Shown here in pieces: positions 25,368 through 46,357 of a stretch of 64,000 nucleotides of DNA. The DNA comes from Candidatus Omnitrophota bacterium (GTDB lineage Bacteria > Omnitrophota > Gorgyraeia > Gygaellales > Profunditerraquicolaceae). The notes under the pieces are model-generated. The model worked only from the letters and a program-made list of their open reading frames with translations, ran no database searches and had not been told where the DNA came from. The translations under genes and the position numbers were made by a program. Location of the stretch: NCBI GenBank assembly GCA_026387335.1, contig JAPLLX010000002.1, forward strand, positions 77,326 through 141,325, in the 5' to 3' direction. The stretch's first letter is position 1. The number at the start of each line of letters is the position of its first letter.

Positions 25368-25750
25368 GAGAAGGACTAGGATTCATCTTATTTCTTATAG
25401 CCCTCACCAGCATCTGCGATACTATAAATCAACTTTTCTTAAAATCCGCGATTAACTCCCTTTTTTCGCCTTCAGGAAATATCCGGGAAATATTAAGGTT
25501 CATTTTCAAGCTGCTTCTGGTGCCCAGGGTCTGGGTCAGCTTCTTATTCAGTTTAATTTCGTTATGTATATGGCTATTTGTATTGAGCCAAGTGGATTTA
25601 AGTTTTGCCTTTTCCGCGGATAGTATGCATTATATTTTTATTGCTCTTGCCTCAAGGTTTATATTGAAGGAGAAGGTTTGTTTTAAGCGCTGGGTAGGAA
25701 TAATACTTATCGTGGTAGGTATTATGATGGTGAGCGTAAGCGTAAGCTAG
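25364..25750 (+). CDS. Small EamA/SMR-like 4-TM protein (ArnF-like partner)
   Basis: Starts at the internal ATG 25364 (MREGLGFILF...), overlapping the upstream stop as ATGA, with RBS AGAAGGA. Confidence 0.5.
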   Translation: MREGLGFILFLIALTSICDTINQLFLKSAINSLFSPSGNIREILRFIFKLLLVPRVWVSFLFSLISLCIWLFVLSQVDLSFAFSADSMHYIFIALASRFILKEKVCFKRWVGIILIVVGIMMVSVSVS

Positions 25751-25838
25751 GCAAGAATACTCCTATATGCTTTAAGAAGTAAAATAAGCTTAAAGCCAAG
25801 AGGCGTGCCGAGTAGATTTTAGTAAAAAAGGAGGGAAG

Positions 25839-25937
25839 ATGATCTGGCTGTGGATAATTTTAGGTATTGTTGTCGTGGTTATTTTGTTTAGGAAATTTTG
25901 CGGTAAATGCGGGTGCGGCTGTTCCCCTAAGAAATAA
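25839..25937 (+). CDS. FeoB-associated Cys-rich membrane peptide-like mini-protein (32 aa, MIWLWIILGIVVVVILFRKFCGKCGCGCSPKK)
   Basis: Strong RBS AAAAGGAGGG 4 nt upstream. One TM helix followed by a C-terminal CxxCGCGC-KK tail characteristic of that family. Followed by the intrinsic terminator at 25973-26003. Confidence 0.5.
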   Translation: MIWLWIILGIVVVVILFRKFCGKCGCGCSPKK

Positions 25938-25972
25938 ATCAGTCATAGACTAGGTCGCTATTTTAGAAATGG

Positions 25973-26003
25973 GGCCAGAGAAATAATTCTGGCCTCATTT
26001 TTT
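25973..26003 (+). terminator. Rho-independent terminator
   Basis: GGCCAGA stem (25973-25979), loop, TCTGGCC (25988-25994), then a T-run. Confidence 0.6.
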
Positions 26004-26005
26004 AC

Positions 26006-26034
26006 TTGACAAATGATACAATTATGGTATCATT
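26006..26034 (+). promoter_or_regulatory. Sigma70-like promoter of the Rrf2 gene, with an overlapping inverted repeat (candidate Rrf2 operator)
   Basis: TTGACA (26006-26011), 16-nt spacer, TATCAT (26028-26033). Inverted repeat AATGATAC (26012-26019) / GTATCATT (26027-26034). Confidence 0.5.
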
Positions 26035-26051
26035 TCTGAAGAAAGGAGAAG

Positions 26052-26450
26052 ATGAAATTAATCACCAGGAATACGGATTACGCATTAAGGGCGGTATGTT
26101 TTATGGCTAAACATAAGGGGAAGGTTGTTTCGGTCGCAGAATTGACCCGAAAATTACGGGTGCCCCGGCCGTTCTTAAGAAAGATACTCCAATCATTAAA
26201 CAGAAGCGGGATACTTAAGTCTCTTAGGGGACAGGGAGGCGGGTTCATCCTGGCGAAAGATGCGACGCAGATATTTCTAATGGATATAATGCGCATATTT
26301 CAGGGGAAATTGAGGCTAAACGATTGTCTGCTCAAAAAACTTATCTGTCCTAATAAAAGAAGCTGTCCTTTAAGAAAAAAGATCGCTAAAATTGAAAGTT
26401 ATGTGCTTAAAGAGTTAAGTGCTATTAATATAGCGTCATTATTGGAATAA
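26052..26450 (+). CDS. Rrf2-family transcriptional regulator (three Cys, probably Fe-S or redox sensing)
   Basis: Rrf2 wHTH N-terminus (MKLITRNTDYALRAVCFMA ... GQGGGFILAKD); C-terminal Cys residues. Confidence 0.85.
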   Translation: MKLITRNTDYALRAVCFMAKHKGKVVSVAELTRKLRVPRPFLRKILQSLNRSGILKSLRGQGGGFILAKDATQIFLMDIMRIFQGKLRLNDCLLKKLICPNKRSCPLRKKIAKIESYVLKELSAINIASLLE

Positions 26451-26464
26451 GAGAGAGAATATTG

Positions 26465-26581
26465 ATGAATAAGTGTCCGGGGCAGGATGCGCAAAAGCAG
26501 TTGCCATATTGCTTAGTTTGTTGTATCTTAATATCACAGGTAAACAGGCTGCCGATAGGCAGCCAGGGAGGTGAAATATGA
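26465..26581 (+). CDS. Hypothetical 38-aa Cys-containing peptide (MNKCPGQDAQKQLPYCLVCCILISQVNRLPIGSQGGEI)
   Basis: Small ORF whose TGA stop overlaps the ATG of the next mini-ORF (ATGA). Speculative. Confidence 0.25.
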   Translation: MNKCPGQDAQKQLPYCLVCCILISQVNRLPIGSQGGEI

Positions 26582-26637
26582 GTTGCGGATGCGGTTGTGG
26601 GACAAAGAAGAAAAAGAAAAAAGCCAAAAAGAAGTAG
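26578..26637 (+). CDS. Hypothetical 19-aa peptide MSCGCGCGTKKKKKKAKKK (CG-repeat plus poly-Lys)
   Basis: RBS GGAGGTGAAAT directly upstream; terminator-like hairpin downstream (26649-26685). Its CGCGC motif is shared with the peptide at 25839-25937. Confidence 0.3.
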   Translation: MSCGCGCGTKKKKKKAKKK

Positions 26638-26648
26638 TTTTTTAGTCC

Positions 26649-26685
26649 GGGCGCCGTTTTAGCAAGCGGCGCCCGCTTATTTTCT
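26649..26685 (+). terminator. Terminator-like hairpin after the mini-ORF pair
   Basis: GGGCGCCG / CGGCGCCC 8-bp stem, followed by GCTTATTTTCT. Confidence 0.45.
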
Positions 26686-26698
26686 AACGGAGGCAGCG

Positions 26699-27094
26699 AT
26701 GGCGGATTTAAAAGATTTATTGCAAAACGCAGATTGGAAAACCGAAAAACATGTTCCGGTTATTGAAGCCCCGGATAAGATCAACAAGGGCGAACCAGTA
26801 AAGGTTACTGTCAGTGTTGGCAAGCAGGTAGCCCATCCTAATACCACTGAACACCATATTAGATGGATCGAGGTCTATTTTCTGGGCCAGGGAGAAAAAT
26901 TTCCTTATCAGCTAGGCAGGTTTGAGTTCTCCAGCCACGGCGAATCAGCCCAGGGGCCCAACACCAGCACTATTTTTACTCAGCCGGAGGTTCTGCTTAC
27001 TTTTAAAACTGAGAAAAGCGGGACGATCCTGGCCGTTGCTTATTGTAATATCCATGGTTTGTGGAAAAACGCAAAAGAAATCCAGGTTGAATAA
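26699..27094 (+). CDS. Superoxide reductase (1Fe-SOR / neelaredoxin-type)
   Basis: EKHVPVI, HPNTTEHHIRWIE and CNIHGLW iron ligands. Confidence 0.85.
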   Translation: MADLKDLLQNADWKTEKHVPVIEAPDKINKGEPVKVTVSVGKQVAHPNTTEHHIRWIEVYFLGQGEKFPYQLGRFEFSSHGESAQGPNTSTIFTQPEVLLTFKTEKSGTILAVAYCNIHGLWKNAKEIQVE

Positions 27095-27148
27095 TTTTAG
27101 CGGGATGAAACTTAAAAGCCTGTTCCTTAGGCAGGCAGGGAGGTAAGT

Positions 27149-27442
27149 ATGTGTATGCTGGGTAAAATGGCCGGATATTTTGCTTTAGTACCTGCGACGA
27201 TGTTATTGGTAGTAAGCTTCTTTGTTTTGTTTACGCTCGGAAAGGTTGTTTCCCGTAATCTAAAGTTATTCGGAGCGGTGATTGTGGCCCTACTTTGGCT
27301 AAGCGCGCTGCTGATTTTTTCTACCGGAGCCTATACTACTGTTAAGGGTAGGCCGCCTTTTAAGTGCCCGATGATGGAGATGATGAAAGGTAAACAGGAT
27401 ATGATGCCTGGTGGTATGATGCAAGCCCCGCAACCCAAGTAA
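27149..27442 (+). CDS. Membrane protein with Met-rich C-terminal tail (hypothetical)
   Basis: Two TM helices, then [25 protein letters not shown]. Confidence 0.4.
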
Positions 27443-27455
27443 GGAGATATTCAAT

Positions 27456-27614
27456 ATGGATAAATACAAGTGCACTGTCTGCGGTTATATTTATGATCCT
27501 AGCCAAGGCGATTCTGTCGGGGGAATCCCCGCTGGTACGCCTTTTGATAAACTGCCCGCGGATTGGGTCTGTCCTGAGTGCGGAGTAGGCAAGGACATGT
27601 TTGAGAAGATTTAA
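27456..27614 (+). CDS. rub: Rubredoxin (52 aa)
   Basis: Not in the ORF track (under 60 aa). [15 protein letters not shown] ... [16 protein letters not shown] with two CxxCG knuckles; RBS AAGGAG. Confidence 0.9.
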
Positions 27615-27642
27615 CCGGGCAAGCTTAGTTTTAGGTACTTAA

Positions 27643-28347
27643 ATGGCTCAGGAATTATCCGTAAGAGTTAAAGAAATAATTCCCAGGACCTATAATGTCA
27701 AAAGCGTTCGGCTGGATATAGGTCAGGAAGCAGAATTTAAGGCCGGGCAGTTTCTTGCGGTCACACTGCAGGATAATCCGGGCCTAAAAAGATACCTTTC
27801 CATATCCAGCTCGCCCACTGAAAAATCTTACCTGGAATTTACCAAGAAGCTTACGGAAAGCGCTTTTTCAAAAGTCCTCCTGAAACTTAAGCCCCAAGAT
27901 CCCGTTAAGATCCAATACCCTATGGGTAAATTTACTCTGGATGACGCCTATACAAATATCGCGTTTTTATCCGGGGGGATCGGCATTACCCCTATAAGGA
28001 GCATAGTTAAATATGTTGTGGACAAAAATTTGGGGACGGATATGGTTTTAATCTATGCCAACCGGTCAGTAAAAGATATCGTCTTTAAAGAAGATTTTGA
28101 CGCGCTGCAGAAAGTTTATCCAAAGCTAAAAGTCGTCCATGTGCTTGGCGAACCTGCCCCGGATTTTAAGTGTATTCCCGGATTAATCAACGTCCAGGTG
28201 ATTAAAAACGAGGTGAGCGATTATCTAAATAGAAGATTTTATCTGTGCGGCCCGCCCCAGATGGTGGAAGTCATGGGAAAAATACTGACTGACGGATTGA
28301 AATTAGCTAAAGAAAATATAATTACGGAAAATTTTCAGGGGTACTAG
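27643..28347 (+). CDS. FNR-type FAD/NAD(P)-binding oxidoreductase (candidate NAD(P)H:rubredoxin reductase)
   Basis: RYLSISS (RxYS FAD motif), GGIGITP and a C-terminal YLCGPPQM. Confidence 0.65.
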   Translation: MAQELSVRVKEIIPRTYNVKSVRLDIGQEAEFKAGQFLAVTLQDNPGLKRYLSISSSPTEKSYLEFTKKLTESAFSKVLLKLKPQDPVKIQYPMGKFTLDDAYTNIAFLSGGIGITPIRSIVKYVVDKNLGTDMVLIYANRSVKDIVFKEDFDALQKVYPKLKVVHVLGEPAPDFKCIPGLINVQVIKNEVSDYLNRRFYLCGPPQMVEVMGKILTDGLKLAKENIITENFQGY

Positions 28348-28377
28348 AAAAATAACAGGCAGGGAAGGAGAAACGAT

Positions 28378-29571
28378 ATGGCAGTTTTAGAAATATTACC
28401 GGGCATCTATTCTGTAGGAGTTGTGGACTGGAACGTACGTAATTTTCACGGGCATACCTATACTACAAAGAGGGGCACTACCTATAATGCCTATCTTATT
28501 ATTGATGAAAAAGTCACCCTTATCGATACGGTTTACGGGCCTTTTGCCGCGGAGTTGATGGAAAATATCCGGCAGGTTATACCCGTGGAGAAAGTAGATT
28601 ATATTATCGCTAACCACGTGGAGACAGACCATAGCGGCGCGCTCCCTGAAATTATGAAACTCGTTCCGAAAGCTAAAATATTCGGGACAAAAAATTGCCA
28701 GGAAGGCCTCTACCGTTATTATTACGGCGACTGGGATTTTGGAATAGTTAAAACCGGAGATAAATTAAAATTAGGCAAAAGGAGTTTAACGTTTATTGAG
28801 GCTCCTATGGTCCATTGGCCGGATAGCATGTTTACCTATTGTCCCGAAGAAGAATTACTTATGCCCAACGACGCCTTTGGCCAGCATCTGGCGACTAATG
28901 AACGTTTCGCCGACCAGGTTGATCCGTGCGCGTTGTGGGATGAAGCGGCGAAATATTACAGCAATATACTCTGGCCGCTGGGGGCAGTCATCTTAAAGAA
29001 AATAGAAGAAGTCCTGAAATTAAACATTCCCATAAAGATTATCGCTCCCAGCCACGGCGTTATCTGGCGTAAGGATCCTATACAGATAATCAATAAGTAT
29101 GTCAGTTGGGCCAAGAATGAAACTTTGGCCAAGGTAGTCCTGGTCTATGAATCTATGTGGGGAGCGACTGAAAAGATGGCCCGTAAAATTATTGAGGGAG
29201 TCCAAAAAGAAGGGTTAAGCGTAAAGTTGTTTGATATAACCGGCTCTGACCGCACGGAAGTTGTTAAAGAGATGCTGGAGGCAAAAGGTTTTATTTTCGG
29301 TTCGTCAACCCACGATAATGGGATACTTACTACGCTGGCCGGCTTTCTGGAATTTATAAAGGGATTTAAACCGAAGAACAGGCTGGCCGCCAGTTTCGGC
29401 TCTTATGGTTGGGCCGGCGGGGCGGTTAAGCAGATAGAGGATATAGCAAAAGAAGCCGGCCTGGAGTTGGCAGCAACCGGATTGCAGGTAAAATATATGC
29501 CGGATAAGGATGACTTAGAAAAGTGTTTTGAATTCGGCAGGAATTTCGCTCTAAAGATAAAAGGGAAGTAA
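28378..29571 (+). CDS. fprA: Flavodiiron protein FprA (rubredoxin:oxygen/NO oxidoreductase)
   Basis: Metallo-beta-lactamase-like diiron site (ANHVETDHSGA) plus a flavodoxin domain (GSSTHDNG). Confidence 0.85.
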   Translation: MAVLEILPGIYSVGVVDWNVRNFHGHTYTTKRGTTYNAYLIIDEKVTLIDTVYGPFAAELMENIRQVIPVEKVDYIIANHVETDHSGALPEIMKLVPKAKIFGTKNCQEGLYRYYYGDWDFGIVKTGDKLKLGKRSLTFIEAPMVHWPDSMFTYCPEEELLMPNDAFGQHLATNERFADQVDPCALWDEAAKYYSNILWPLGAVILKKIEEVLKLNIPIKIIAPSHGVIWRKDPIQIINKYVSWAKNETLAKVVLVYESMWGATEKMARKIIEGVQKEGLSVKLFDITGSDRTEVVKEMLEAKGFIFGSSTHDNGILTTLAGFLEFIKGFKPKNRLAASFGSYGWAGGAVKQIEDIAKEAGLELAATGLQVKYMPDKDDLEKCFEFGRNFALKIKGK

Positions 29572-39865: not shown

Positions 39866-42800
39866 ATGAAAGTCAAATTAAGAAAAATCCTATCTTTAGC
39901 TTTAACCATTAGTTTACTTTTTCAGCAAATAGGTTTTGCCCAGATAGCTACCGAACTTAACCTGGTCAATCACTTCGCCAGGATGGCTAGCAGTCTCACA
40001 GTAGAGAAATTTCGGCCCCTGCACCTGCGTTATTTCTCTTACGACAACTTAAATGACAATTTCAAGGTATTGGTGGATAAAGGTGACTTCGAGAAGGGAC
40101 TGTCCCCGAAGGGGGCTGTCCCTGAAGAGAAACTTAAAGAAGAAACCAAAACCCTCCTTAGCTACTTCCTTGTAGGAGTTACTCTTCCAGATAGTATGTT
40201 CTGGGTTAACCTGCGCCCTGATTCCGAAGACCAGATAATAGACCAGTATCTGGAGAAGACAGATATAGGTAAGATAATGCTGGAAGCAGATCTCCAGCTA
40301 AAGAAAGACACCGCGCTAATGACTTCTCCGGCTACCCCTGAAGGTAGGGAATACTGGGATAGGCTCTATAAGAAGGCAGCCGAGCTTTATGGCTATGATA
40401 ATGTTAGCATACCTACCTTAACCCGGCCCTGGATAGTCCCCGGAGAAATAATTGTCCGGGAATCTCAAGACTCAGCCTATGTTTATAAAGCTAATCTTAA
40501 GGTAATGCTGGAGCAGGATTACTTAAAAGATTCTAGTAACTATAACTTTAAAGACAGCCGCTCCAAAGCCCTGAATGAATACTCATCCGAACTAATAAGG
40601 GAATTAATTATCCCTAAGCTCACTAAAGAAGTAAACTCCAGCAAAAGATACGCTCCTTTACGCCAGGTATATTACTCTTTAATCCTGGCCCGCTGGTTTA
40701 AACTGCGCTTTAGCGGCAAAACCGGCACCTATGCTTCGCTCATTAACACTAGGAATTTAACTAACTTAATATCTAAAGACTCCTGGTCCAAGACCGATTA
40801 TTTTAAACAATACCAAAAATCCTTCTCTGAAGGCGAATACAATATCCAAGAACCAGTGCGTACCCCTACAGGCCAGGTAATCAGGAGTTACTTTAGCGGC
40901 GGGATAGATGTAGCTAGTAGCGCTATTAATACTCAGAATGGCGTTAGTAATCTTAAAGCGGCGTTGCCCCTTTCTTTGTTTTCTCGAACCGGAGTCATAA
41001 TAGGAGGAAATGCCGCAAGGCCTTTTAGCGTAAATCTGCAGCCCGTTGTTGCCGCTTCAGTCGGCGCCGCCTCGCCGGTTAAAACCTCTAGCCCGATATT
41101 TACTCTTGATGATAGAAATGGGGTAGTCTTTTCTGTTTATCCCAGAACAGAAATAAGAGAGGATCAACTAAGAGAGGCGGCGGAGGTTTTGAAAAACCGG
41201 ATTTTTAACTATCCAAAAAATGGCAAGATTATTGATATTCAGCTAGTCCCTGGCTCTAAGCGGCAGATAGCTTATCCTACGCGCTGGAAAATAGTTATAG
41301 AGCATAAGCCTGATTTAGAAGAAACTCTGGTTACATTAGTAAATGATCAGGGCAAAGTTATTATTAATATAGGCTATTCTATCGATAGTAAAGCGCTCGA
41401 TTTACCAGAAAAACTTCTTAACGAACACCTGCAGATGGCATTGATTAGCGCCGCATCCAGAATAAGGTTTAATTCACTGGCCGCCGCCTCGCCGGTTAGT
41501 TCATTAGAAAATCAAGCATATCTTCTTGCTTTAACCTTGGGCATAAAAGATTCAGAAAGGAAGTATGTCGCGGTGGTATTTATGATGCCTTTGATAAAAG
41601 CCTTTATGGATAATAGTAATCCTCCTCCGACTTCAAGCCAGGCCAAAGAATTCTATCAGAGAATAATAAATAATACAGACAAGACAGTTTCAGTTGAAGT
41701 TTTAGCCCGGTCGTTTGCTTTCCTTTCAAATCCGAACGCTAGCTTGTCGGAAAAAGAAAAATTCAACAGCTCGCCGGTGACTTCAAATTTAGCTAAGGCA
41801 GTTGAGGAAGCGCAAAGCCAGTTGCCGGCAGATGTAAATGAACAGATTTTAAAGTTTATTGTTACCGGCGATGAAAATGGAAGAATACTTTATCCTATTT
41901 GGCCGCAAGATTCTGTTATGGTCGGACATGTCAGAGATGACCGGGCTGGATATTTTGCCAGAGGCCTGCAGAATAGAGGCTTTAAAAATTTATTAGGATA
42001 TATTAAATTTACCAATGATTTCCAAGGTAAAGCTGTTTTGTCCGAAGAAACTATCGCTAGTGTTCCAAATACTTTTTTTGAGAGAATATCCAACAAGGGG
42101 TATCAAGTGTTGGTGATTTCTGAAGATGAGAAGAAAAGCCATACGGGTAAAAACGCTGCCGGTAGGAAAAAGGACGGGCTTTTCCCCGGGCAAAAACAGA
42201 TTGTAATACCTATGCAGAAATCTGAAATGGCCTATGTAGATACTCCCCAGATGAAAATGAAAGAATGCGCTGACGAGGTATTAAATGGACTGGATGACGA
42301 TGCTACAGATTTTATTTTAGTTAATCTGCTAAGTTCAGATATGATGAAACACACCGGTAACTTCCAAGCGGCAAAAAAAAGTAATGAAATAACCGACCAG
42401 CAGATCGGAAGAATAAAAGAAAAGGTTGATAGAATAAAAAGCCATATTCTGGGTGATATGATGAAAGAAGTCAATAAATACTTATCTAGAGAAGAGGCCA
42501 GTCAGCTTTATGTTTTACTATTGAATAATTATGCTGAATTTTTAGCAAGGCTGAAGAATAAAAACCAGGAGCTCTATAAACGGATAAAAGATTTAGAAGC
42601 CAAAATTCCCATCTTTGTTATTACTGCTGACCATGGCGCTTCTGAGGCAGGTCTCACTGATAATCCGAAGGAATCCGACACTTTCCATACAGCCAATCCA
42701 GTGCCGTATATTATTTATGATCCCCTAAGAACTCAAAAATTAGCTTTAAAGTCCGGACAGACCATCAGGAATAACGGGGCTACATTATTACACCTATTAG

Positions 42801-45800
42801 GCGAAGAGATCCCCCAAGGGTCTGATCCCAGCTTGCTGCCTGATGATTATCAAGGAAGTAAGCGTAGGATCACGATGGCTGTTTTGGATGGCTGGGGTAT
42901 AAACCCTGATCAGAATTATCCCTGGGATGCTATCCGGCTGGCCAATACACCTAATTATGACTGGATGGTTGAGAATGCGTCTTTCACTCAGGTCCAAGCG
43001 CACGGTGAAGTGATCGGATTAAGAGGCCCATTATCTTTGGAAGAAGGTAGACACCATTTAAGAGGCCTGCAAGCAGGCCAGACTGACGTTGGCCACCTGC
43101 ATTTGTTCTCACTGAGAGAGATTAAACAACCTTTATGGTATGTAGACAGGCTTATCAAAGGCAGTATACGCGATGGCGTTTTTGATGAAAGCAAACCCGA
43201 AGTCCAGGTATTGGTAAAAGAATTACAAAGGGTTAAGGATAATAATTTGAGATTTCATTATATAACCATCGCTTCTGAGGGTGGAGTGCATTCTTCGCTC
43301 TATCATATGTATGCCTTGATGAGATTAGCTAAGAAAATCGGCTTAAGGCAGGATCAATTTATTATCCATTTTGCCGCTGACGGTAGGGATGTGCCTACGC
43401 GCACCGCGCATCTATACATTCAGGATGTTGAAAAACGCATTGAAGAAATTGGAATAGGCGTAATTGCAACGGTATTTGGCAGGGATATGTTCGTACGTAA
43501 GGATGGCGCAGAAAATATCACTAATCGCATCATTGATGTAATGGAGGGTATTAATCTGGATGCGCAGGATGTCACGCAGGTAAAATCTGTCGCCAGCTCG
43601 GCGGTCACAGCAGTAGAATCTTTGAGAAATGATATTCTAACTAGGCTAAAAGAACGGATAAAAGATGATTCTGTTGTTAACCTGGTAAGGTCAAACTACT
43701 TATTTTATACGGCGAATACTCCTTCTAAATTAGCAAAGGCACTTGTTCAGATAGAAGAGAATCTGGATGGATTGATTATGTCTGCCACCGAAGAAAGATC
43801 GAGAGACCTGCAGACGCTCCAAGAATCAATAGAATCAGAACTGGCTAAACTTGTCTCCGTCGACTTGCCGGTGGAGACTATCAGTGAATTTGCAAAGATA
43901 GTTGAAAAACTGGCTGGTTATGGAGATGTAAGTTTTGATATATCGGGAACGGGAACTTTGAGAATACGCTATGCTGGTAATTTGTCTATGGTAGATAAGG
44001 TAGAAGCCGACAAGCTTCTGGTTAAGGCTAGAAAATTAATAGTAGAAGTTTCTTCTATAATAGGAAAAAAGATAAGCCAGTCATATGTGATGAAATTCCC
44101 GCAGGGGACTTTAGCTGCTAAGATAAGGGAAGATTTACTGCTTGAAAAAGCAAGGATATCAGAAAGTTTCGCCAGCTCGGAGGTTACTTATATAGACATA
44201 AATGAAGTAAGGCCGCCGGATAAGAGTTTTACTTTTCAACCCACAAATGGAGTGAGAATTTTTATTAATAATCGTGTCAATTGGTATACTCTGCAATTGG
44301 CTAGGTATGAGCCGGGAAAGAAGAATTATTTGATATTTAAGATTGGCAATCAACCTGTTCATTACGCTTACCTGAGCAGTAATCTTACAATTGGCCAACA
44401 GGATGTTGTTAGGACTATAATGAGAAAAATAGAGAATGGAACTCAGCTGTGGACAGAAATAGACTTAATCCAAGCGTTGGAAAAAGCATTATCTATGTCA
44501 CAATATAAGCCTAAAACTCAAGAATTACCGTCACCAATTATAATAGAACCTATTGTAGATAATAAAATTAAAGTGGAGTCGGGTGATTCAGAGCGCGCCA
44601 GCTCGCCGGTGCAGAAGGAAGAAAGATCGAACTATCTATTCTCTGGGTTACAGGAGGCAACCTTAGATGCAATTGGGGATATCCAGGGATTGGCAAGTTG
44701 GGCGCCTTTAATAGAAGAAGGCCCCAGCGGCGTAGAGCTAGGTATGGATATTATAATGAAGGAATACGGTTTAGATTCAGATAAGCCTATTCTTACGCAA
44801 CGATTAGCCGAACCAGGTAATTTTAAAGAGCTTTTGGAAAAAATCGATAAATTATATGAGTTTTTGGAAAAAAAATTAGAGAGCTTTTCTAAATTACTCG
44901 CTGATGTTAAAGAACAACAAAAGAAAATAATGACCCAGCATATAAGTAGTGTTAGCGACCAGGGTAAGGGTATAGAAAAAAGTTCCGTTTATTGGGGGAG
45001 TGAGTTTGTTTTAGAAGTTGCAATTAATAACATTGAAATAGCAATGCTTAAGTTAAGGCAAGCTGTTGAGAAAGTCAAAGGAGATATAGCTATTGTACCC
45101 AACTCATATATCGGGACTAAATTAAAGGAAGGCGCCAGCTCGGCGGTAACCAGAGAGAAAAAAGAGTCAGTTAACCTTTTAGGCGGAAGCACGCAAAAAA
45201 GAGTGCTTAGGGTTTATGAAGAGAAGGGCAGAGATTTAATAGCTACAGCCCTAGCTACAGGCCTTACTTTGGATATTGTATCTGAGTATGTTAAGGACGC
45301 CAAGCGTAATCCGGCCAGCTCGGCGGTGACGGAAAAAATTAAGGAAACGTTTCGCCAAGGAGGACTTTCCTTGAGTGAGTATACTATGGATTATATCGCG
45401 AAAAGGTTAAGCTCCATATTAAAGGATGGCGATGATATTGATAGAGATACTGCTGCTAAAATATTAATTAGCGTATATGATAATAATAAGCTTGCGGGTG
45501 GAACTCGAGCCCTCGGTCAAGTGTTTGCAACGCTTAATGATGCCAGGGAATTGCGGGAAATGGTAAAATACATCCGCGATCAGAAGGATAAATCTGTTGC
45601 CAGCTCGGCGGTGCATCATAAAATAATCAACCTCTACGATTTTGATTCTATCAAGGCGAAGAAAATAGATCCAAGTATTTTAAAAAATAGATTCATAGAG
45701 AAAATAGAAGAATTAATAGCAGATGTAAGGGAAGGTAAGAGAAGAGAATTTGCCGGTGAGTTGATACGATTAGCGAAAGCTGATGAGAACCTTTATACGA

Positions 45801-46357
45801 TTTGGTTTACCGATACAACATGGGTAGATATTAGACCTCAAGGGACAGAGATAGATATTAATTTTAGGTGTCGAGCTGGAATAGAGCAAAGCGTTGTGTG
45901 GGATGTTAGGCGTTTGATTAAGCTTTCCCAGTCAGAATTGTTAGTAGGAACCGTCGGCTCGGCGGTGCAGACTCCTGAGGAGACCGCAAGTTCAGCGTTG
46001 ACTCCCGGCGGTATTGATTTCCGCGCTCTACCGATGAGCATCCAGCCGATGGGAAGTTTTGCGGGCCTGAATTTTAAGCTGCCGCAGTTGACTCAAGCGC
46101 AGCTTAAGCAAATCAATATTGAATCAGAGATGCAACAGGTTAAGAATCTGGTAGAATCAGGGATTGTTCCTTCCGGAGACAGGATTAAAGAGCTTATCGC
46201 CGCTTGCAGCCAGAAGGGGAAGATTAGTTATTATGTAGATAATCTATTACTCTGCCTGGTAGATATATGTAAACTTGAAGAGCAGAATGCCTTTGAAACT
46301 TCCCCGGAGCTAAGAGAGGCGCTGGCGATTGTTGATTCGCTTGGCGGGCAGGTATAA
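39866..46357 (+). CDS. Giant secreted modular protein (2163 aa) with embedded iPGM-like metalloenzyme segments and at least 10 recurring A-S-S-A-V motifs; function unknown
   Basis: RBS AAAAGGAG; signal peptide MKVKLRKILSLALTISLLFQQIGFAQ. Hallmark iPGM motifs are internal: ITADHGASE ... HTANPVP (aa ~918-940), MAVLDGWG (aa ~1004), AGQTDVGH, SEGGVHSS (aa ~1135), DGRDV, IATVFGR. See findings. Confidence 0.85.
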   Translation: MKVKLRKILSLALTISLLFQQIGFAQIATELNLVNHFARMASSLTVEKFRPLHLRYFSYDNLNDNFKVLVDKGDFEKGLSPKGAVPEEKLKEETKTLLSYFLVGVTLPDSMFWVNLRPDSEDQIIDQYLEKTDIGKIMLEADLQLKKDTALMTSPATPEGREYWDRLYKKAAELYGYDNVSIPTLTRPWIVPGEIIVRESQDSAYVYKANLKVMLEQDYLKDSSNYNFKDSRSKALNEYSSELIRELIIPKLTKEVNSSKRYAPLRQVYYSLILARWFKLRFSGKTGTYASLINTRNLTNLISKDSWSKTDYFKQYQKSFSEGEYNIQEPVRTPTGQVIRSYFSGGIDVASSAINTQNGVSNLKAALPLSLFSRTGVIIGGNAARPFSVNLQPVVAASVGAASPVKTSSPIFTLDDRNGVVFSVYPRTEIREDQLREAAEVLKNRIFNYPKNGKIIDIQLVPGSKRQIAYPTRWKIVIEHKPDLEETLVTLVNDQGKVIINIGYSIDSKALDLPEKLLNEHLQMALISAASRIRFNSLAAASPVSSLENQAYLLALTLGIKDSERKYVAVVFMMPLIKAFMDNSNPPPTSSQAKEFYQRIINNTDKTVSVEVLARSFAFLSNPNASLSEKEKFNSSPVTSNLAKAVEEAQSQLPADVNEQILKFIVTGDENGRILYPIWPQDSVMVGHVRDDRAGYFARGLQNRGFKNLLGYIKFTNDFQGKAVLSEETIASVPNTFFERISNKGYQVLVISEDEKKSHTGKNAAGRKKDGLFPGQKQIVIPMQKSEMAYVDTPQMKMKECADEVLNGLDDDATDFILVNLLSSDMMKHTGNFQAAKKSNEITDQQIGRIKEKVDRIKSHILGDMMKEVNKYLSREEASQLYVLLLNNYAEFLARLKNKNQELYKRIKDLEAKIPIFVITADHGASEAGLTDNPKESDTFHTANPVPYIIYDPLRTQKLALKSGQTIRNNGATLLHLLGEEIPQGSDPSLLPDDYQGSKRRITMAVLDGWGINPDQNYPWDAIRLANTPNYDWMVENASFTQVQAHGEVIGLRGPLSLEEGRHHLRGLQAGQTDVGHLHLFSLREIKQPLWYVDRLIKGSIRDGVFDESKPEVQVLVKELQRVKDNNLRFHYITIASEGGVHSSLYHMYALMRLAKKIGLRQDQFIIHFAADGRDVPTRTAHLYIQDVEKRIEEIGIGVIATVFGRDMFVRKDGAENITNRIIDVMEGINLDAQDVTQVKSVASSAVTAVESLRNDILTRLKERIKDDSVVNLVRSNYLFYTANTPSKLAKALVQIEENLDGLIMSATEERSRDLQTLQESIESELAKLVSVDLPVETISEFAKIVEKLAGYGDVSFDISGTGTLRIRYAGNLSMVDKVEADKLLVKARKLIVEVSSIIGKKISQSYVMKFPQGTLAAKIREDLLLEKARISESFASSEVTYIDINEVRPPDKSFTFQPTNGVRIFINNRVNWYTLQLARYEPGKKNYLIFKIGNQPVHYAYLSSNLTIGQQDVVRTIMRKIENGTQLWTEIDLIQALEKALSMSQYKPKTQELPSPIIIEPIVDNKIKVESGDSERASSPVQKEERSNYLFSGLQEATLDAIGDIQGLASWAPLIEEGPSGVELGMDIIMKEYGLDSDKPILTQRLAEPGNFKELLEKIDKLYEFLEKKLESFSKLLADVKEQQKKIMTQHISSVSDQGKGIEKSSVYWGSEFVLEVAINNIEIAMLKLRQAVEKVKGDIAIVPNSYIGTKLKEGASSAVTREKKESVNLLGGSTQKRVLRVYEEKGRDLIATALATGLTLDIVSEYVKDAKRNPASSAVTEKIKETFRQGGLSLSEYTMDYIAKRLSSILKDGDDIDRDTAAKILISVYDNNKLAGGTRALGQVFATLNDARELREMVKYIRDQKDKSVASSAVHHKIINLYDFDSIKAKKIDPSILKNRFIEKIEELIADVREGKRREFAGELIRLAKADENLYTIWFTDTTWVDIRPQGTEIDINFRCRAGIEQSVVWDVRRLIKLSQSELLVGTVGSAVQTPEETASSALTPGGIDFRALPMSIQPMGSFAGLNFKLPQLTQAQLKQINIESEMQQVKNLVESGIVPSGDRIKELIAACSQKGKISYYVDNLLLCLVDICKLEEQNAFETSPELREALAIVDSLGGQV
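41066..45967 (+). repeat. Dispersed direct repeats of a GC-rich 12-15-nt element inside the giant ORF
   Basis: GCCGCCTCGCCGGTT at 41066-41080 and 41483-41497. AGCTCGCCGGTG at 41769-41780. GCCAGCTCGG(C/A)GGT at 43592-43605, 44171-44184, 45134-45147, 45314-45328 and 45599-45613. GCCAGCTCGCCGGTG at 44597-44611. GGCTCGGCGGTG at 45956-45967. All are in the same frame and encode A(A/S)S(A/P/E)V. Confidence 0.8.

Follow-up and report, generated by a model that had tools for sequence, protein, structure and literature searches.

A conserved 19–20-codon coding sequence with a Cys-Gly head and a polylysine tail precedes an oxygen-defense operon in one Omnitrophota clade

In leader-peptide transcription attenuators of the trpL, hisL, and pyrL type, a short open reading frame (ORF) with a Shine-Dalgarno (SD) site is followed by a GC-rich hairpin and by an operon without a promoter of its own. 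TnaC, ErmCL, and SpeFL are ribosome arrest or sensor peptides of about 20 residues. The pufBA segment of the Rhodobacter puf mRNA is a small cistron stabilized by a hairpin within an operon, and rubredoxins and zinc ribbons carry CxxCG knuckles, two of which form a (Cys)4 site. A locus with features of each of these systems occurs in the window analyzed here, a 64,000-nt stretch of an Omnitrophota contig (JAPLLX010000002.1). A sequence-only reading had placed two translationally coupled mini-ORFs there, between an Rrf2 gene and a superoxide reductase (SOR) gene. The layout it described is present, with both ORFs, an ATGA overlap, an SD site, and a hairpin, and ORF1 starts one base later than the position it gave, 26465 (Table 1). 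Comparison of the neighborhood in related loci separated the two ORFs. The second (ORF2) keeps an intact frame in relatives and, with its SD site and downstream hairpin, is real and unannotated, whereas the frame of the first (ORF1) is not kept.

TABLE 1 Features of the ORF1–ORF2 locus, in window positions (compared loci are designated by L numbers in the text)
Feature	Position	Strand	Description
32-aa membrane mini-protein	25839–25937	+	TM helix and C-terminal CGKCGCGCSPKK
ORF1	26466–26581	+	ATG at 26466, TGA at 26579–26581; 38 aa (MNKCPGQDAQKQLPYCLVCCILISQVNRLPIGSQGGEI); 4 Cys
Zinc-ribbon gene relic	26466–26489	+	First 8 codons (MNKCPGQD) of the lost "CPGQD" gene (with or without HD domain)
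hcp 3' relic	26493–26542	+	50 nt; true frame reads ..AKAVAILLSLLYLNITG; the body of ORF1 reads it off-frame
Promoter-like site	26501–26529	+	TTGCCA-N17-TATCTT, within the hcp relic; promoter scan
5' stem-loop	26547–26564	+	GGCTGCC-GATA-GGCAGCC, directly upstream of the SD; in the centroid fold
Extended SD site	26566–26574	+	GGGAGGTGA, 3 nt before the ORF2 ATG
ORF2 mini-gene	26578–26637	+	ATG at 26578, TAG at 26635–26637; encodes MSCGCGCGTKKKKKKAKKK
3' GC-rich hairpin and T-rich segment	26648–26685	+	Stem CGGGCGCCG / CGGCGCCCG at 26648–26675; CTTATTTTCT at 26676–26685
Downstream operon	26699–29571	+	SOR (ATG at 26699), 97-aa membrane protein, rubredoxin, FNR-like reductase, flavodiiron protein; Pfam
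Second hairpin and SD leader copy	27115–27148	+	TAGGCAGGCAGGGAGGT, before the 97-aa membrane protein gene

ORF2 is, on the comparative evidence, a genuine, conserved, and unannotated small coding sequence. Its family follows the pattern M-[SG]-C-G-x-C-G...polyLys-TAG over 19–20 residues and was found in 14 lineages of one Omnitrophota clade (L111, L017, and 17 other distinct DNA contexts). Among members found via gene neighborhood, 7 of 8 variable sites in the tail fall at codon position 3 (P = 4e-4), and the single exception is a K-to-R change. The family indel is 3 nt long and leaves the frame intact; the Ala codon is GCC, GCA, or GCT. Cys3, Gly4, and Cys6 are invariant, with Cys codons alternating between TGC and TGT and with synonymous variation at Gly codons as well, and residue 2 is Ser or Gly in every member. 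Between the window and L086 the peptide is ~85% identical, compared with 70% for Rrf2 and 59% for the 97-aa protein. Comparison of the members shows ORF2 to be a protein-coding frame under purifying selection.

Conservation is distributed unevenly along the peptide. Over the whole family, the MSCGxCG N-terminus is the most widely conserved part, and it is kept in L017, a divergent member that has a different basic tail and lies inside an operon, 21 nt from its hairpin. The main-clade tail, K6AK3, shows one K-to-R change among 18 sequences, an invariance that is unbiased only for the six members found via gene neighborhood, since the metagenome scan pattern required K6AK3. The Cys region of the main clade is less rigid than the tail, with an indel and C, S, P, or M at position 8, and the CGCGCG form is restricted to hcp-less lineages. 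Codons GGA4, AAG11, and AAA13 are fixed at the nucleotide level. The stop is TAG in all 14 lineages, compared with 15% of stops in the window, and 71% of Lys codons are AAG, compared with 40% genome-wide.

The first regex screen, for CxCxC with a basic tail in 80 SOR loci, was empty, as CxxC is the form that most members have. In 113 loci, looser screens and an nhmmer profile added L017 and no other member. Searches of Pfam and NCBIfam gave no family match for either mini-ORF or for the 32-aa protein. A scan of positions 25700–27300 against Rfam 15 (E ≤ 10) returned chance-level matches only, of which the best overlapping one (ncr982, 23 bits against a threshold of 50, E = 1.6) aligned the hairpin alone; the structured small RNA that the sequence-only reading had raised thus finds no known ncRNA family covering the region. 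That reading had also expected the gene to be missed by standard pipelines, and the JGI gene calls here do use the wrong (-1) frame. A literature search for KKKKKKAKKK found no paper with this peptide tail, a search on lysine-codon leader peptides found nothing relevant, and exact look-ups of the SOR protein and of the 100%-identical Rrf2 (P0001) returned no record. Other decodings of the region were tried and rejected. The -1 frame called by JGI (GTG, 26571–26645) has its GTG within the SD site, changes that amount to K/E swaps, and a variable length. For -1 frameshifting at A-AAA-AAG-like sites, the hairpin is too distant from the slippery sites to act as stimulator, and the continuation after TAG read-through is out of frame with SOR.

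Positions 26547–26685 are, by comparison across members, a compact conserved expression module made of a 5' stem-loop, an extended SD site, a 19–20-codon gene, TAG, and a GC-rich hairpin. GGAGGTG of the SD site is invariant across all members. The 5' stem-loop occurs in eight sequences, where its second stem pair is G-C, A-T, or C-G, and is absent in L085, L092, L102, and L111. All members have the 3' hairpin, with compensatory pairs in the stem (GC to AU twice and CG to UA three times), and same-species variants differ there only in loop and flank. A strict terminator scan flags this hairpin in the window and not in L111, L103, or L017; the hairpins of L092, L101, and L109 have a poor U-tract or none. 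The distance from the ORF2 stop to the stem is 3–27 nt, with 3–11 nt in most lineages, 21 nt in L017, and 27 nt in L109. We infer that the hairpin acts as a partial terminator, a 3' stabilizer, or both. Neither RNAalifold nor single-sequence minimum free energy (MFE) folding gave a conserved alternative (antiterminator) helix, and an MFE pairing of the SD site with the U-tract is missing from the centroid fold. The second copy of the leader matches at 16 of 17 bases (two matches in the window against 0.25 expected) and does not occur in L111 or L103.

The mini-gene stands upstream of the rubredoxin/SOR/flavodiiron operon in all members, and the module is never split. The SOR ATG lies 23 nt after the hairpin in the window; L017, L092, L099, and L104 have similarly little room between hairpin and operon, and at least five lineages have no space for a promoter belonging to the operon. 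In these, the hairpin would necessarily gate the operon, as a cis-regulatory leader does.

ORF1, by contrast with ORF2, is no gene. Aligned with the compared loci, it is a chimera of the start of a lost CPGQD gene and an off-frame 3' relic of hcp, that is, a spurious frame across a deletion scar, a promoter-like block, the 5' hairpin, and the SD site of ORF2. The CPGQD relic matches gene starts in L003 (966–991, 23/26) and L014, and the gene is intact after Rrf2, at the equivalent position, in L001 (75 aa), L090, and L111. Pfam zinc-ribbon matches to the 75-aa form are weak and below Pfam thresholds, and a 238-aa form has a Pfam HD-domain match. Over its 50 nt, the hcp relic has 90% identity with the L006 and L008 genes (E = 1e-10 and 4e-10). 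An intact hcp (Prismane domain) occupies the syntenic position in six lineages (L086, L091, L095, L099, L104, and L109), and decayed remnants longer than that of the window occur in five. Nucleotide homology to hcp, the syntenic position, and the loss of an intact frame mark the segment as a pseudogene relic.

No counterpart of ORF1 was identified outside this species in the compared loci. It is absent in L102, L103, and L111, its alignment in L085 has no start codon, and in L086, L087, L002, L003, and L006 the corresponding sequence is off-frame within intact hcp. Contigs of the same species (L081–L084) carry both ORFs and the ATGA overlap; they are identical over both ORFs and so give no information on coding. 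Upstream of ORF1 there is a weak SD-like sequence only (AGAGAGAGAA). The ATGA overlap depends on the AGT that is codon 2 of ORF2 here, and it is absent where that codon is GGT. ORF1 as a real mini-ORF and its translational coupling to ORF2, both proposed from the sequence, are therefore not borne out. The ancestral order would have been Rrf2, (Fe-S protein), CPGQD zinc-ribbon gene, hcp, mini-ORF, hairpin, and rubredoxin operon. Loss from zinc-ribbon codon 9 to near the end of hcp would have produced the scar at 26466–26545 and left a 45–50-nt piece of hcp.

The promoter-like block inside this piece is predicted by the promoter scan in the window, L111, and L103. It is 80–100% conserved in eight hcp-less lineages, compared with 61–78% for the remaining remnant sequence. 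Across 12 intact hcp genes, the block is the segment of lowest synonymous-codon entropy (0.21, compared with a mean of 0.65; permutation p = 0.0002). L111 keeps both hexamers although its spacer has diverged. As a consensus match that is also conserved, the block is likely the promoter from which the mini-ORF and the operon behind it are transcribed. If so, the 3' end of hcp would already have held an embedded promoter before hcp was lost, and we propose that the piece was retained because of the promoter inside it. One half-site in the block resembles the palindrome of the Rrf2 promoter (6/9 and 4/9), and an Rrf2 operator is not claimed.

Our preferred reading, held tentatively and at somewhat less than an even chance, is that the hairpin-bracketed mini-cistron encodes a CxxC-polylysine micro-protein of an oxidative-stress regulon. 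Protection of the mini-gene segment of the mRNA at both ends would allow efficient translation and an abundant, trans-acting peptide. After removal of the initiator Met, for which Ser or Gly at residue 2 is suitable, the peptide would consist of a CxxC(G) knuckle (CxCxC in the window) and a polylysine tail of charge +9. Its two or three thiols could bind metal or cycle between dithiol and disulfide, and the polycationic tail would hold it on a polyanionic surface such as nucleic acid, an acidic membrane, or an acidic partner. It would serve the rubredoxin/SOR/flavodiiron oxygen-defense system, its constant neighbor. The hairpin would be both a leaky terminator and a 3' stabilizer, giving more mini-gene message than operon message, and the operon, itself without a promoter here, would be expressed by read-through.

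Action in trans is favored by the retention of MSCGxCG in L017 despite its different basic tail, by the bracketing of the cistron with 5' and 3' hairpins, and by the variable distance from stop to hairpin, the several hairpins without a U-tract, and the missing antiterminator pairing. The enrichment of AAG among Lys codons favors faithful translation and works against long A runs; stalling or sliding on poly-A, suggested from the sequence for the run of AAG and AAA codons, finds no support in this codon usage. Eight hcp-less lineages retain ORF2, as does L102 despite its lack of Rrf2, and the role of the mini-gene would thus be independent of both genes. Other observations fit a micro-protein poorly. 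At 19 residues the product is about as short as a functional free peptide can be, a micro-protein does not account for the invariant TAG, and the main-clade tail is more rigid than the Cys region, the opposite of what a generic polybasic anchor should show. Such a tail is more like what an arrest peptide, or constraint on the nucleotides themselves, would leave.

The main alternative is a cis-acting leader peptide or attenuator, in which translation of the mini-ORF would serve solely for control of the hairpin; we judge it somewhat unlikely. A ribosome reaching or pausing at UAG after the polylysine run would abut the base of the stem and weaken termination, which would couple transcription of the promoter-less SOR/rubredoxin/flavodiiron operon to translation of the mini-ORF. 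The signal could be the supply of Cys-tRNA or Lys-tRNA, or a ligand or redox state sensed by the nascent chain, which would still be wholly within the exit tunnel at termination. The order of promoter-like site, SD site, ORF, hairpin, and operon is conserved, its components always occur together, and the short gap between hairpin and SOR in the window agrees with such a leader. So do the near-invariance of the last 10 residues and of the tail length in the main clade, the fixed TAG and fixed codons, and the stem pairing maintained by compensatory changes. However, RNAalifold and single-sequence folds gave no conserved antiterminator structure, and the stop-to-stem distances in L017 and L109 are too long for occlusion by the ribosome. 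Some lineages have a hairpin with no U-tract, or one that the strict terminator scan does not flag. Lys and Cys codons are unrelated to the function of the operon, the most widely conserved MSCGxCG is far from the peptidyl-transferase center, and the Lys codon bias is toward the less slippery AAG.

A more specific function, in either of two equally novel forms, is possible but improbable. In one, the peptide would be a genetically encoded polycationic dithiol, concentrated by its tail on DNA, RNA, or acidic membranes, where the CxxC/CxCxC head would quench radicals or chelate Fe(II). It would be a ribosomally made analog of cationic aminothiol radioprotectors, which oxygen-sensitive Omnitrophota would produce along with SOR, rubredoxin, and flavodiiron enzymes. 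In the other, the Cys residues would detect metal or oxidant within the ribosomal tunnel, and a stall at the polylysine-UAG end would gate the hairpin.

It is very unlikely that the tract is noncoding, a small RNA or a purine-rich element of RNA or DNA with an incidental ORF. The -1 frame is also open in every member, and with a hairpin behind it the purine tract looks like the A-tract that some terminators have. Against this stand the concentration of tail variation at third codon positions with one K-to-R exception, the Ala codon that varies only at its third base, the synonymous Cys and Gly changes, and the 3-nt indel. The SD spacing suits the ATG, the start of the -1 frame lies inside the SD site, the observed changes would read as K/E swaps in that frame, and there is no Rfam match.

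A RiPP-like precursor, one of the possibilities in the sequence-only reading, here taken as modified and exported, is extremely unlikely and gained no support from the annotated loci. The peptide is small and Cys-rich, and NCBIfam gives it a weak match to TIGR04067, a putative sactipeptide family (E = 0.035; 14 bits, cutoff 45), but the match is compositional and ORF2 has no leader/core organization. Called genes and Pfam matches in L081–L113 include no adjacent radical-SAM, YcaO, lanthipeptide-synthetase, protease, or exporter gene; L111 has its closest radical-SAM gene >4 kb off, beyond unrelated genes, and the neighbors are always redox-defense genes. A regulatory pair of translationally coupled uORFs, as the ATGA overlap and the presence of both ORFs in the window and in L081–L084 might suggest, is barely credible and is contradicted by the comparative data, given that ORF1 has no counterpart outside the species and a weak SD-like sequence only, that the overlap is lost wherever codon 2 of ORF2 is GGT, and that most transcripts would start inside ORF1 because it spans the promoter-like block.

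Standard gene callers do not see ORFs as small as this one. Omnitrophota are uncultivated, and so their oxygen-defense biology is known only from sequence. The locus offers a clean, testable case of a 19–20-codon gene that outlives its neighbors and keeps its link with the rubredoxin/SOR/flavodiiron system. The pattern of its conservation, with an obligatory hairpin and a polylysine tail and UAG that are both fixed, may reflect either a peptide or a leader function. Should the peptide prove to be a thiol tethered to DNA or membranes, or a redox sensor that acts as a nascent chain, it would be a new kind of oxidative-stress component.

Among known small proteins, those encoded next to feoB share with this locus small ORFs with a Cys-Gly-rich motif, and the 32-aa protein is likewise built as a TM helix followed by a Cys-rich tail. 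ORF2 differs in having no TM helix or hydrophobic segment. The neighborhood contains no feoB; the neighbors of the 32-aa gene in all annotated loci are EamA, DegT, and Rrf2. Pfam (E ≤ 1) and NCBIfam (E ≤ 10) searches with ORF2, the 32-aa protein, and two of its orthologs gave no match to the feoB-adjacent class, and the 32-aa protein itself matched neither PF12669 nor an NCBIfam model. The 32-aa protein is conserved in L085, L104, and L109. The paralogy with ORF2 that the sequence-only reading proposed holds for the shared motif (CGCGC and KK) and not beyond it, as the nhmmer model of the mini-ORF reaches the tail of the 32-aa gene only at E = 0.27–3.

Compared with trpL, hisL, and pyrL attenuators, the locus has the same short SD-bearing ORF (here 19–20 codons), GC-rich hairpin, and operon without its own promoter. 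It differs in having no antiterminator pairing, in repeated Lys and Cys codons unmatched to the operon, in the variable stop-to-stem distance, and in an amino acid sequence that is conserved even at Gly and Cys residues far from the stop. With TnaC, ErmCL, and SpeFL it shares the length of about 20 residues, the whole peptide within the exit tunnel at termination, and, in the main clade, nearly invariant C-terminal residues and stop codon. ORF2 has no sequence similarity to them, the tail of L017 differs, and arrest is hypothetical for ORF2. Most members carry C-G-[K/R/V]-C-G, a single knuckle like that of rubredoxins and zinc ribbons, and the window has the variant CxCxCG; with one knuckle rather than two, the peptide would form no (Cys)4 site alone.

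As in pufBA, an intercistronic hairpin comes after the cistron of a small peptide, and it would permit read-through into the genes beyond while favoring the upstream segment. The mini-gene has a 5' hairpin in addition, and its product, at 19–20 aa, is soluble and cationic rather than a membrane antenna protein. Some promoters are embedded in the gene upstream, near its 3' end, and the predicted -35/-10 pair likewise lies inside the coding sequence of hcp. In depressed synonymous variation, and in a hexamer pair that outlives the gene around it, the site resembles those embedded promoters. The locus provides a clear case of a likely coding-sequence promoter surviving as the last remnant of a deleted gene, and a warning that intergenic "mini-ORFs" may be gene debris.

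The two mini-ORFs between the Rrf2 gene and the superoxide reductase (SOR) gene separate into gene debris (ORF1) and a well-supported mini-gene (ORF2). The elements named in the sequence-only reading (both ORFs, the ATGA overlap of the ORF1 stop and ORF2 start, the Shine-Dalgarno site, and the hairpin) were each present on rereading and in an ORF listing. Genes 3' of SOR code, in order, for a 97-aa membrane protein, a rubredoxin, an FNR-like reductase, and a flavodiiron protein. The membrane protein (27149-27442) has a Met-rich C-terminus, adjoins rubredoxin in most relatives, and has no Pfam family. Neither mini-ORF matched Pfam or NCBIfam. The region is not a known non-coding RNA family: Rfam gave nothing at the mini-ORFs, and its top overlapping match scored 23 bits where the threshold is 50, with the hairpin alone aligned. 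Elsewhere in the window, a very large ORF (2163 aa) occupies 39866-46357 on the + strand.

Features of the mini-ORF locus in the window, with counterparts from relatives' loci (L numbers)
Feature	Position	Strand	Description
32-33-aa membrane mini-protein	window 25839-25937; L085 1337-1435; L104 1215-1313; L109 3693-3794
Rrf2 regulator gene	26052-26450		flanks the mini-ORFs
ORF1	ATG 26466 to TGA 26579-26581	+	38 aa, four Cys (reading and ORF listing of 25500-27300)
Promoter-like TTGCCA-N17-TATCTT	26501-26529	+	promoter scan prediction
Extended Shine-Dalgarno site GGGAGGTGA	26566-26574	+	3 nt 5' of ORF2 ATG
ORF2	ATG 26578 to TAG 26635-26637	+	encodes MSCGCGCGTKKKKKKAKKK (ORF listing of 25500-27300)
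Hairpin	26648-26675	+	9-12 bp, GC-rich; T-rich stretch CTTATTTTCT follows
One-iron SOR gene	26699-27094		flanks the mini-ORFs
ORF2 peptide, L085			MGCGKCSCGSKKKKKKAKKK; gene neighbourhood
ORF2 peptide, L086/87/88			MSCGKCGSGAKKKKKKAKKK; gene neighbourhood
ORF2 peptide, L105/106			MGCGRCGSGSKKKKKKAKKK; gene neighbourhood
ORF2 peptide, L109/110			MSCGRCGSMAKKKKKKAKKK; gene neighbourhood
ORF2 peptide, L111			MSCGRCGSGAKRKKKKAKKK; gene neighbourhood

Relatives' loci were collected with protein queries. SOR, at identities of up to 77%, gave 80 loci in species-representative genomes, most of them Candidatus Omnitrophota. Rrf2 gave a match at 100%, annotated as an Omnitrophica MAG, another at 99%, and below these a series at 60-74%. 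The 99% Rrf2 group (L081-L084) is the same species as the window. Both mini-ORFs are identical there, and differences are confined to the loop of the hairpin and to sequence just 5' of the stem, a pattern that is consistent with a functional stem and carries no information on coding.

In L002, L003, L006, and L008, the gene directly 5' of SOR is hcp, which codes for a hybrid-cluster protein with a Prismane domain. Over 50 nt, window positions 26493-26542 are 90% identical to hcp sequence from the 3' part of the gene (L006, E = 1e-10; L008, E = 4e-10), and the true frame of this relic differs from that of ORF1, reading ..AKAVAILLSLLYLNITG. ORF1 codons 1-8 (MNKCPGQD) correspond to the opening of a zinc-ribbon gene located after Rrf2 in relatives, including L001 (75 aa, MIFKCPGQD...), L090, and L111; in L003 and L109 this gene takes a 238-aa form with an HD domain. 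The fullest order, in L109 and L110, is Rrf2, 4Fe-4S protein, CPGQD/HD protein, Hcp, mini-ORF, hairpin, rubredoxin. Given these two matches and the intact order in relatives, the window lineage has evidently lost everything between codon 9 of the CPGQD gene and a point near the hcp end, and ORF1 spans the junction, on this comparison an accidental frame over a deletion scar and not a gene. Its counterpart lacks a start codon in L085, is an off-frame reading within intact hcp in L086 and L087, and does not exist in L102, L103, or L111. The ATGA overlap arises because ORF2 codon 2 is AGT, and it is missing where codon 2 is GGT. The proposal of ORF1 as a gene translationally coupled to ORF2 is supported on neither count.

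ORF2 has counterparts in several gene neighbourhoods. A metagenome scan with a pattern that fixed Gly-x-K6-A-K3-stop alone gave 14 loci, 13 of which have the N-terminus M-[SG]-C-G-(K/R/-)-C-G. A divergent member, L017 (MSCGVCGPRKPKKKAKKKKK), was found by nhmmer profile between a flavodiiron gene and rubredoxin; no further member exists among the 113 loci collected. Variable tail sites fall at codon position 3 in seven of eight cases, the eighth being K-to-R (hypergeometric P = 4e-4; six neighbourhood-found sequences). The Ala codon is GCC, GCA, or GCT. As residues, Cys3 and Cys6 never change and Gly7 and Gly9 hardly do, and the codons of all four vary synonymously; Gly4 is GGA in all members, and the sole indel is one codon. 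Identity between the window and L086 is ~85% for the ORF2 peptide, 70% for Rrf2, and 59% for the 97-aa protein. On this comparative evidence, the ORF2 frame is conserved in relatives under purifying selection, and the ORF put forward from sequence alone stands as a conserved coding mini-gene. JGI gene calls here (L085 2303-2380, L087 3360-3452) use the -1 frame, Glu/Lys-rich with a GTG start; this frame was rejected as a real gene, as its changes would be K/E swaps and the GTG sits inside the Shine-Dalgarno site. Public annotation therefore mislabels the locus where it is labelled. An unrelated 45-aa protein in L100 (3668-3706, - strand; MGKIIVKNVIERKPGFLYYVDGKGNVCEAKMARGGKKKKKKAKKK) ends in the exact K6AK3 tail and has no Pfam match.

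Every ORF2 member has GGAGGTG 3-6 nt 5' of the ATG and a strong hairpin 3-15 nt past the stop, except in L017 (21 nt) and L109 (27 nt). Pairing in the main-clade stem (GGGCGCCG/CGGCGCCC) is kept through compensatory changes, two from GC to AU and three from CG to UA. A stem-loop lies directly 5' of the Shine-Dalgarno site in eight lineages, its second base pair being G-C, A-T, or C-G. The module is always 5' of (SOR)-(97-aa protein)-rubredoxin-reductase-flavodiiron protein, a constant association with the rubredoxin operon, and is kept in eight lineages without hcp as well as in L102 without Rrf2. The hairpin is 23 nt from the SOR ATG in the window, and the gap is comparably small in L017, L092, L099, and L104, so operon expression must come via hairpin read-through. 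Judged strictly, the hairpin resembles a terminator in the window and not in L111, L103, or L017; U-tracts are poor in L092, L101, and L109. At 27115-27148, the hairpin and Shine-Dalgarno leader are duplicated 5' of the 97-aa membrane gene, with 16 of 17 core bases identical. Its closest match is the leader as it stands in L096, L097, and L105. The two other lineages with SOR here, L111 and L103, lack the copy.

The promoter-like site in the hcp relic is independently predicted by promoter scan in L111 and L103. The hcp gene has been lost from eight lineages (window, L085, L092, L096, L097, L102, L103, and L105), where a 41-nt block (AAAAAGCAGTTGCYATATTGCTTASTTTGTTGTATCTTAAT) matches the intact-hcp consensus at 80-100% identity, compared to 61-78% for the remaining remnant and a random level for the 40 nt 5'. 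L111, a ninth hcp-less lineage, keeps the block too, with both hexamers retained and the spacer diverged. The block alone remains of hcp in the window, L102, L103, and L111, with differing deletion end-points. Across the last 110 codons of 12 distinct intact hcp genes, synonymous-codon entropy is lowest at TLLYLNIK, the -10 region (0.21, where the mean is 0.65; permutation p = 0.0002). We infer that the predicted promoter lay within the hcp 3' end before the gene was lost; consensus and conservation suggest that the block is retained because it drives the sequence 3' of it. Within one clade, hcp is intact in six lineages, decayed in five, and a bare block of 45-50 nt in four (those listed, L102 being without Rrf2 too). 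Decayed 3' remnants with frameshifts or stops occur in L085 (2095-2300) and in L092, L096, L097, and L105 (~210 nt 5' of the mini-ORF). A perfect palindrome (AAATGATAC-N7-GTATCATTT) overlaps the Rrf2 promoter (26006-26035; TTGACA-16-TATCAT with TG, matching at 11/12) and is kept at the same place in L085 (~1509-1533); it is probably an autoregulatory Rrf2 operator. The block 5' of the mini-ORF contains nothing like this palindrome.

We infer that either the ORF2 peptide acts in trans or translating ORF2 controls the hairpin in cis. A trans-acting micro-protein is the favoured reading, held tentatively and a little short of probable, because the family-wide constant part is the N-terminal MSCGxCG while the L017 tail differs, stop-to-hairpin distance and U-tract quality are unconstrained, RNA folding found no antiterminator, 5' and 3' hairpins bracket a cistron with an 8-9-nt Shine-Dalgarno site, as in a message built for stability and heavy translation, Lys codons are 71% AAG versus 40% genome-wide, avoiding slippery A runs, and the second residue is Ser or Gly throughout, either of which is compatible with initiator Met removal. 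Such a product would carry one CxxC(G) knuckle, in the window CxCxC, on a +9 tail. The head may bind metal or act as a dithiol/disulfide, and the tail may tether it to a polyanionic surface or partner; any specific target would be a guess. A leader or attenuator acting on the hairpin in cis is the less likely rival; it draws on the fixed K6AK3 length in the main clade, several ORF2 codons fixed at the nucleotide level, and a hairpin that necessarily gates an operon without its own promoter. It also draws on the ORF2 stop, TAG in 14/14 lineages compared to 7/48 stops in the window. In all members a T-rich spacer, TTTTT or CTTTT, comes directly after this stop (e.g., window 26635-26647). L017 has a second in-frame TAG three codons past the first.

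The 32-33-aa membrane mini-protein (M.W.GI...KKF.G.CGCGC[ST]PKK), between EamA genes and Rrf2, is real, with a conserved TM and CGCGC[ST]PKK in the window, L085, L104, and L109; several lineages that carry the mini-ORF lack it. Of its supposed Cys-Gly paralogy with ORF2, the shared CGCGC motif survives, but the likeness is five low-complexity residues, and the ORF2 nucleotide profile reaches its gene at E = 0.27-3 only. The CGCGCG form of ORF2 is confined to hcp-less lineages, and all lineages with intact hcp have the CxxC form. PF12669 is a FeoB-associated Cys-rich family (PMC8749426). It matches neither ORF2 nor the mini-protein, which is built alike but has no feoB nearby. Poly-A stalling or sliding is not supported, the Lys codon bias running the opposite way, and neither is a RiPP precursor, with no adjoining maturase in any annotated locus.

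The mini-gene is a new small-ORF family, confined as far as seen to one Omnitrophota clade plus L017, and in kind it belongs with stress-operon micro-proteins or leaders. None of the protein and RNA families in Pfam, NCBIfam, and Rfam matches it, and a literature search found the K6AK3 tail in no paper. The layout of the module is like that of leader-peptide attenuators and arrest peptides, but the alternative structure and pathway-matched codons that define attenuators are missing, and it is therefore not filed with them. Its layout is also like that of hairpin-stabilised small cistrons.
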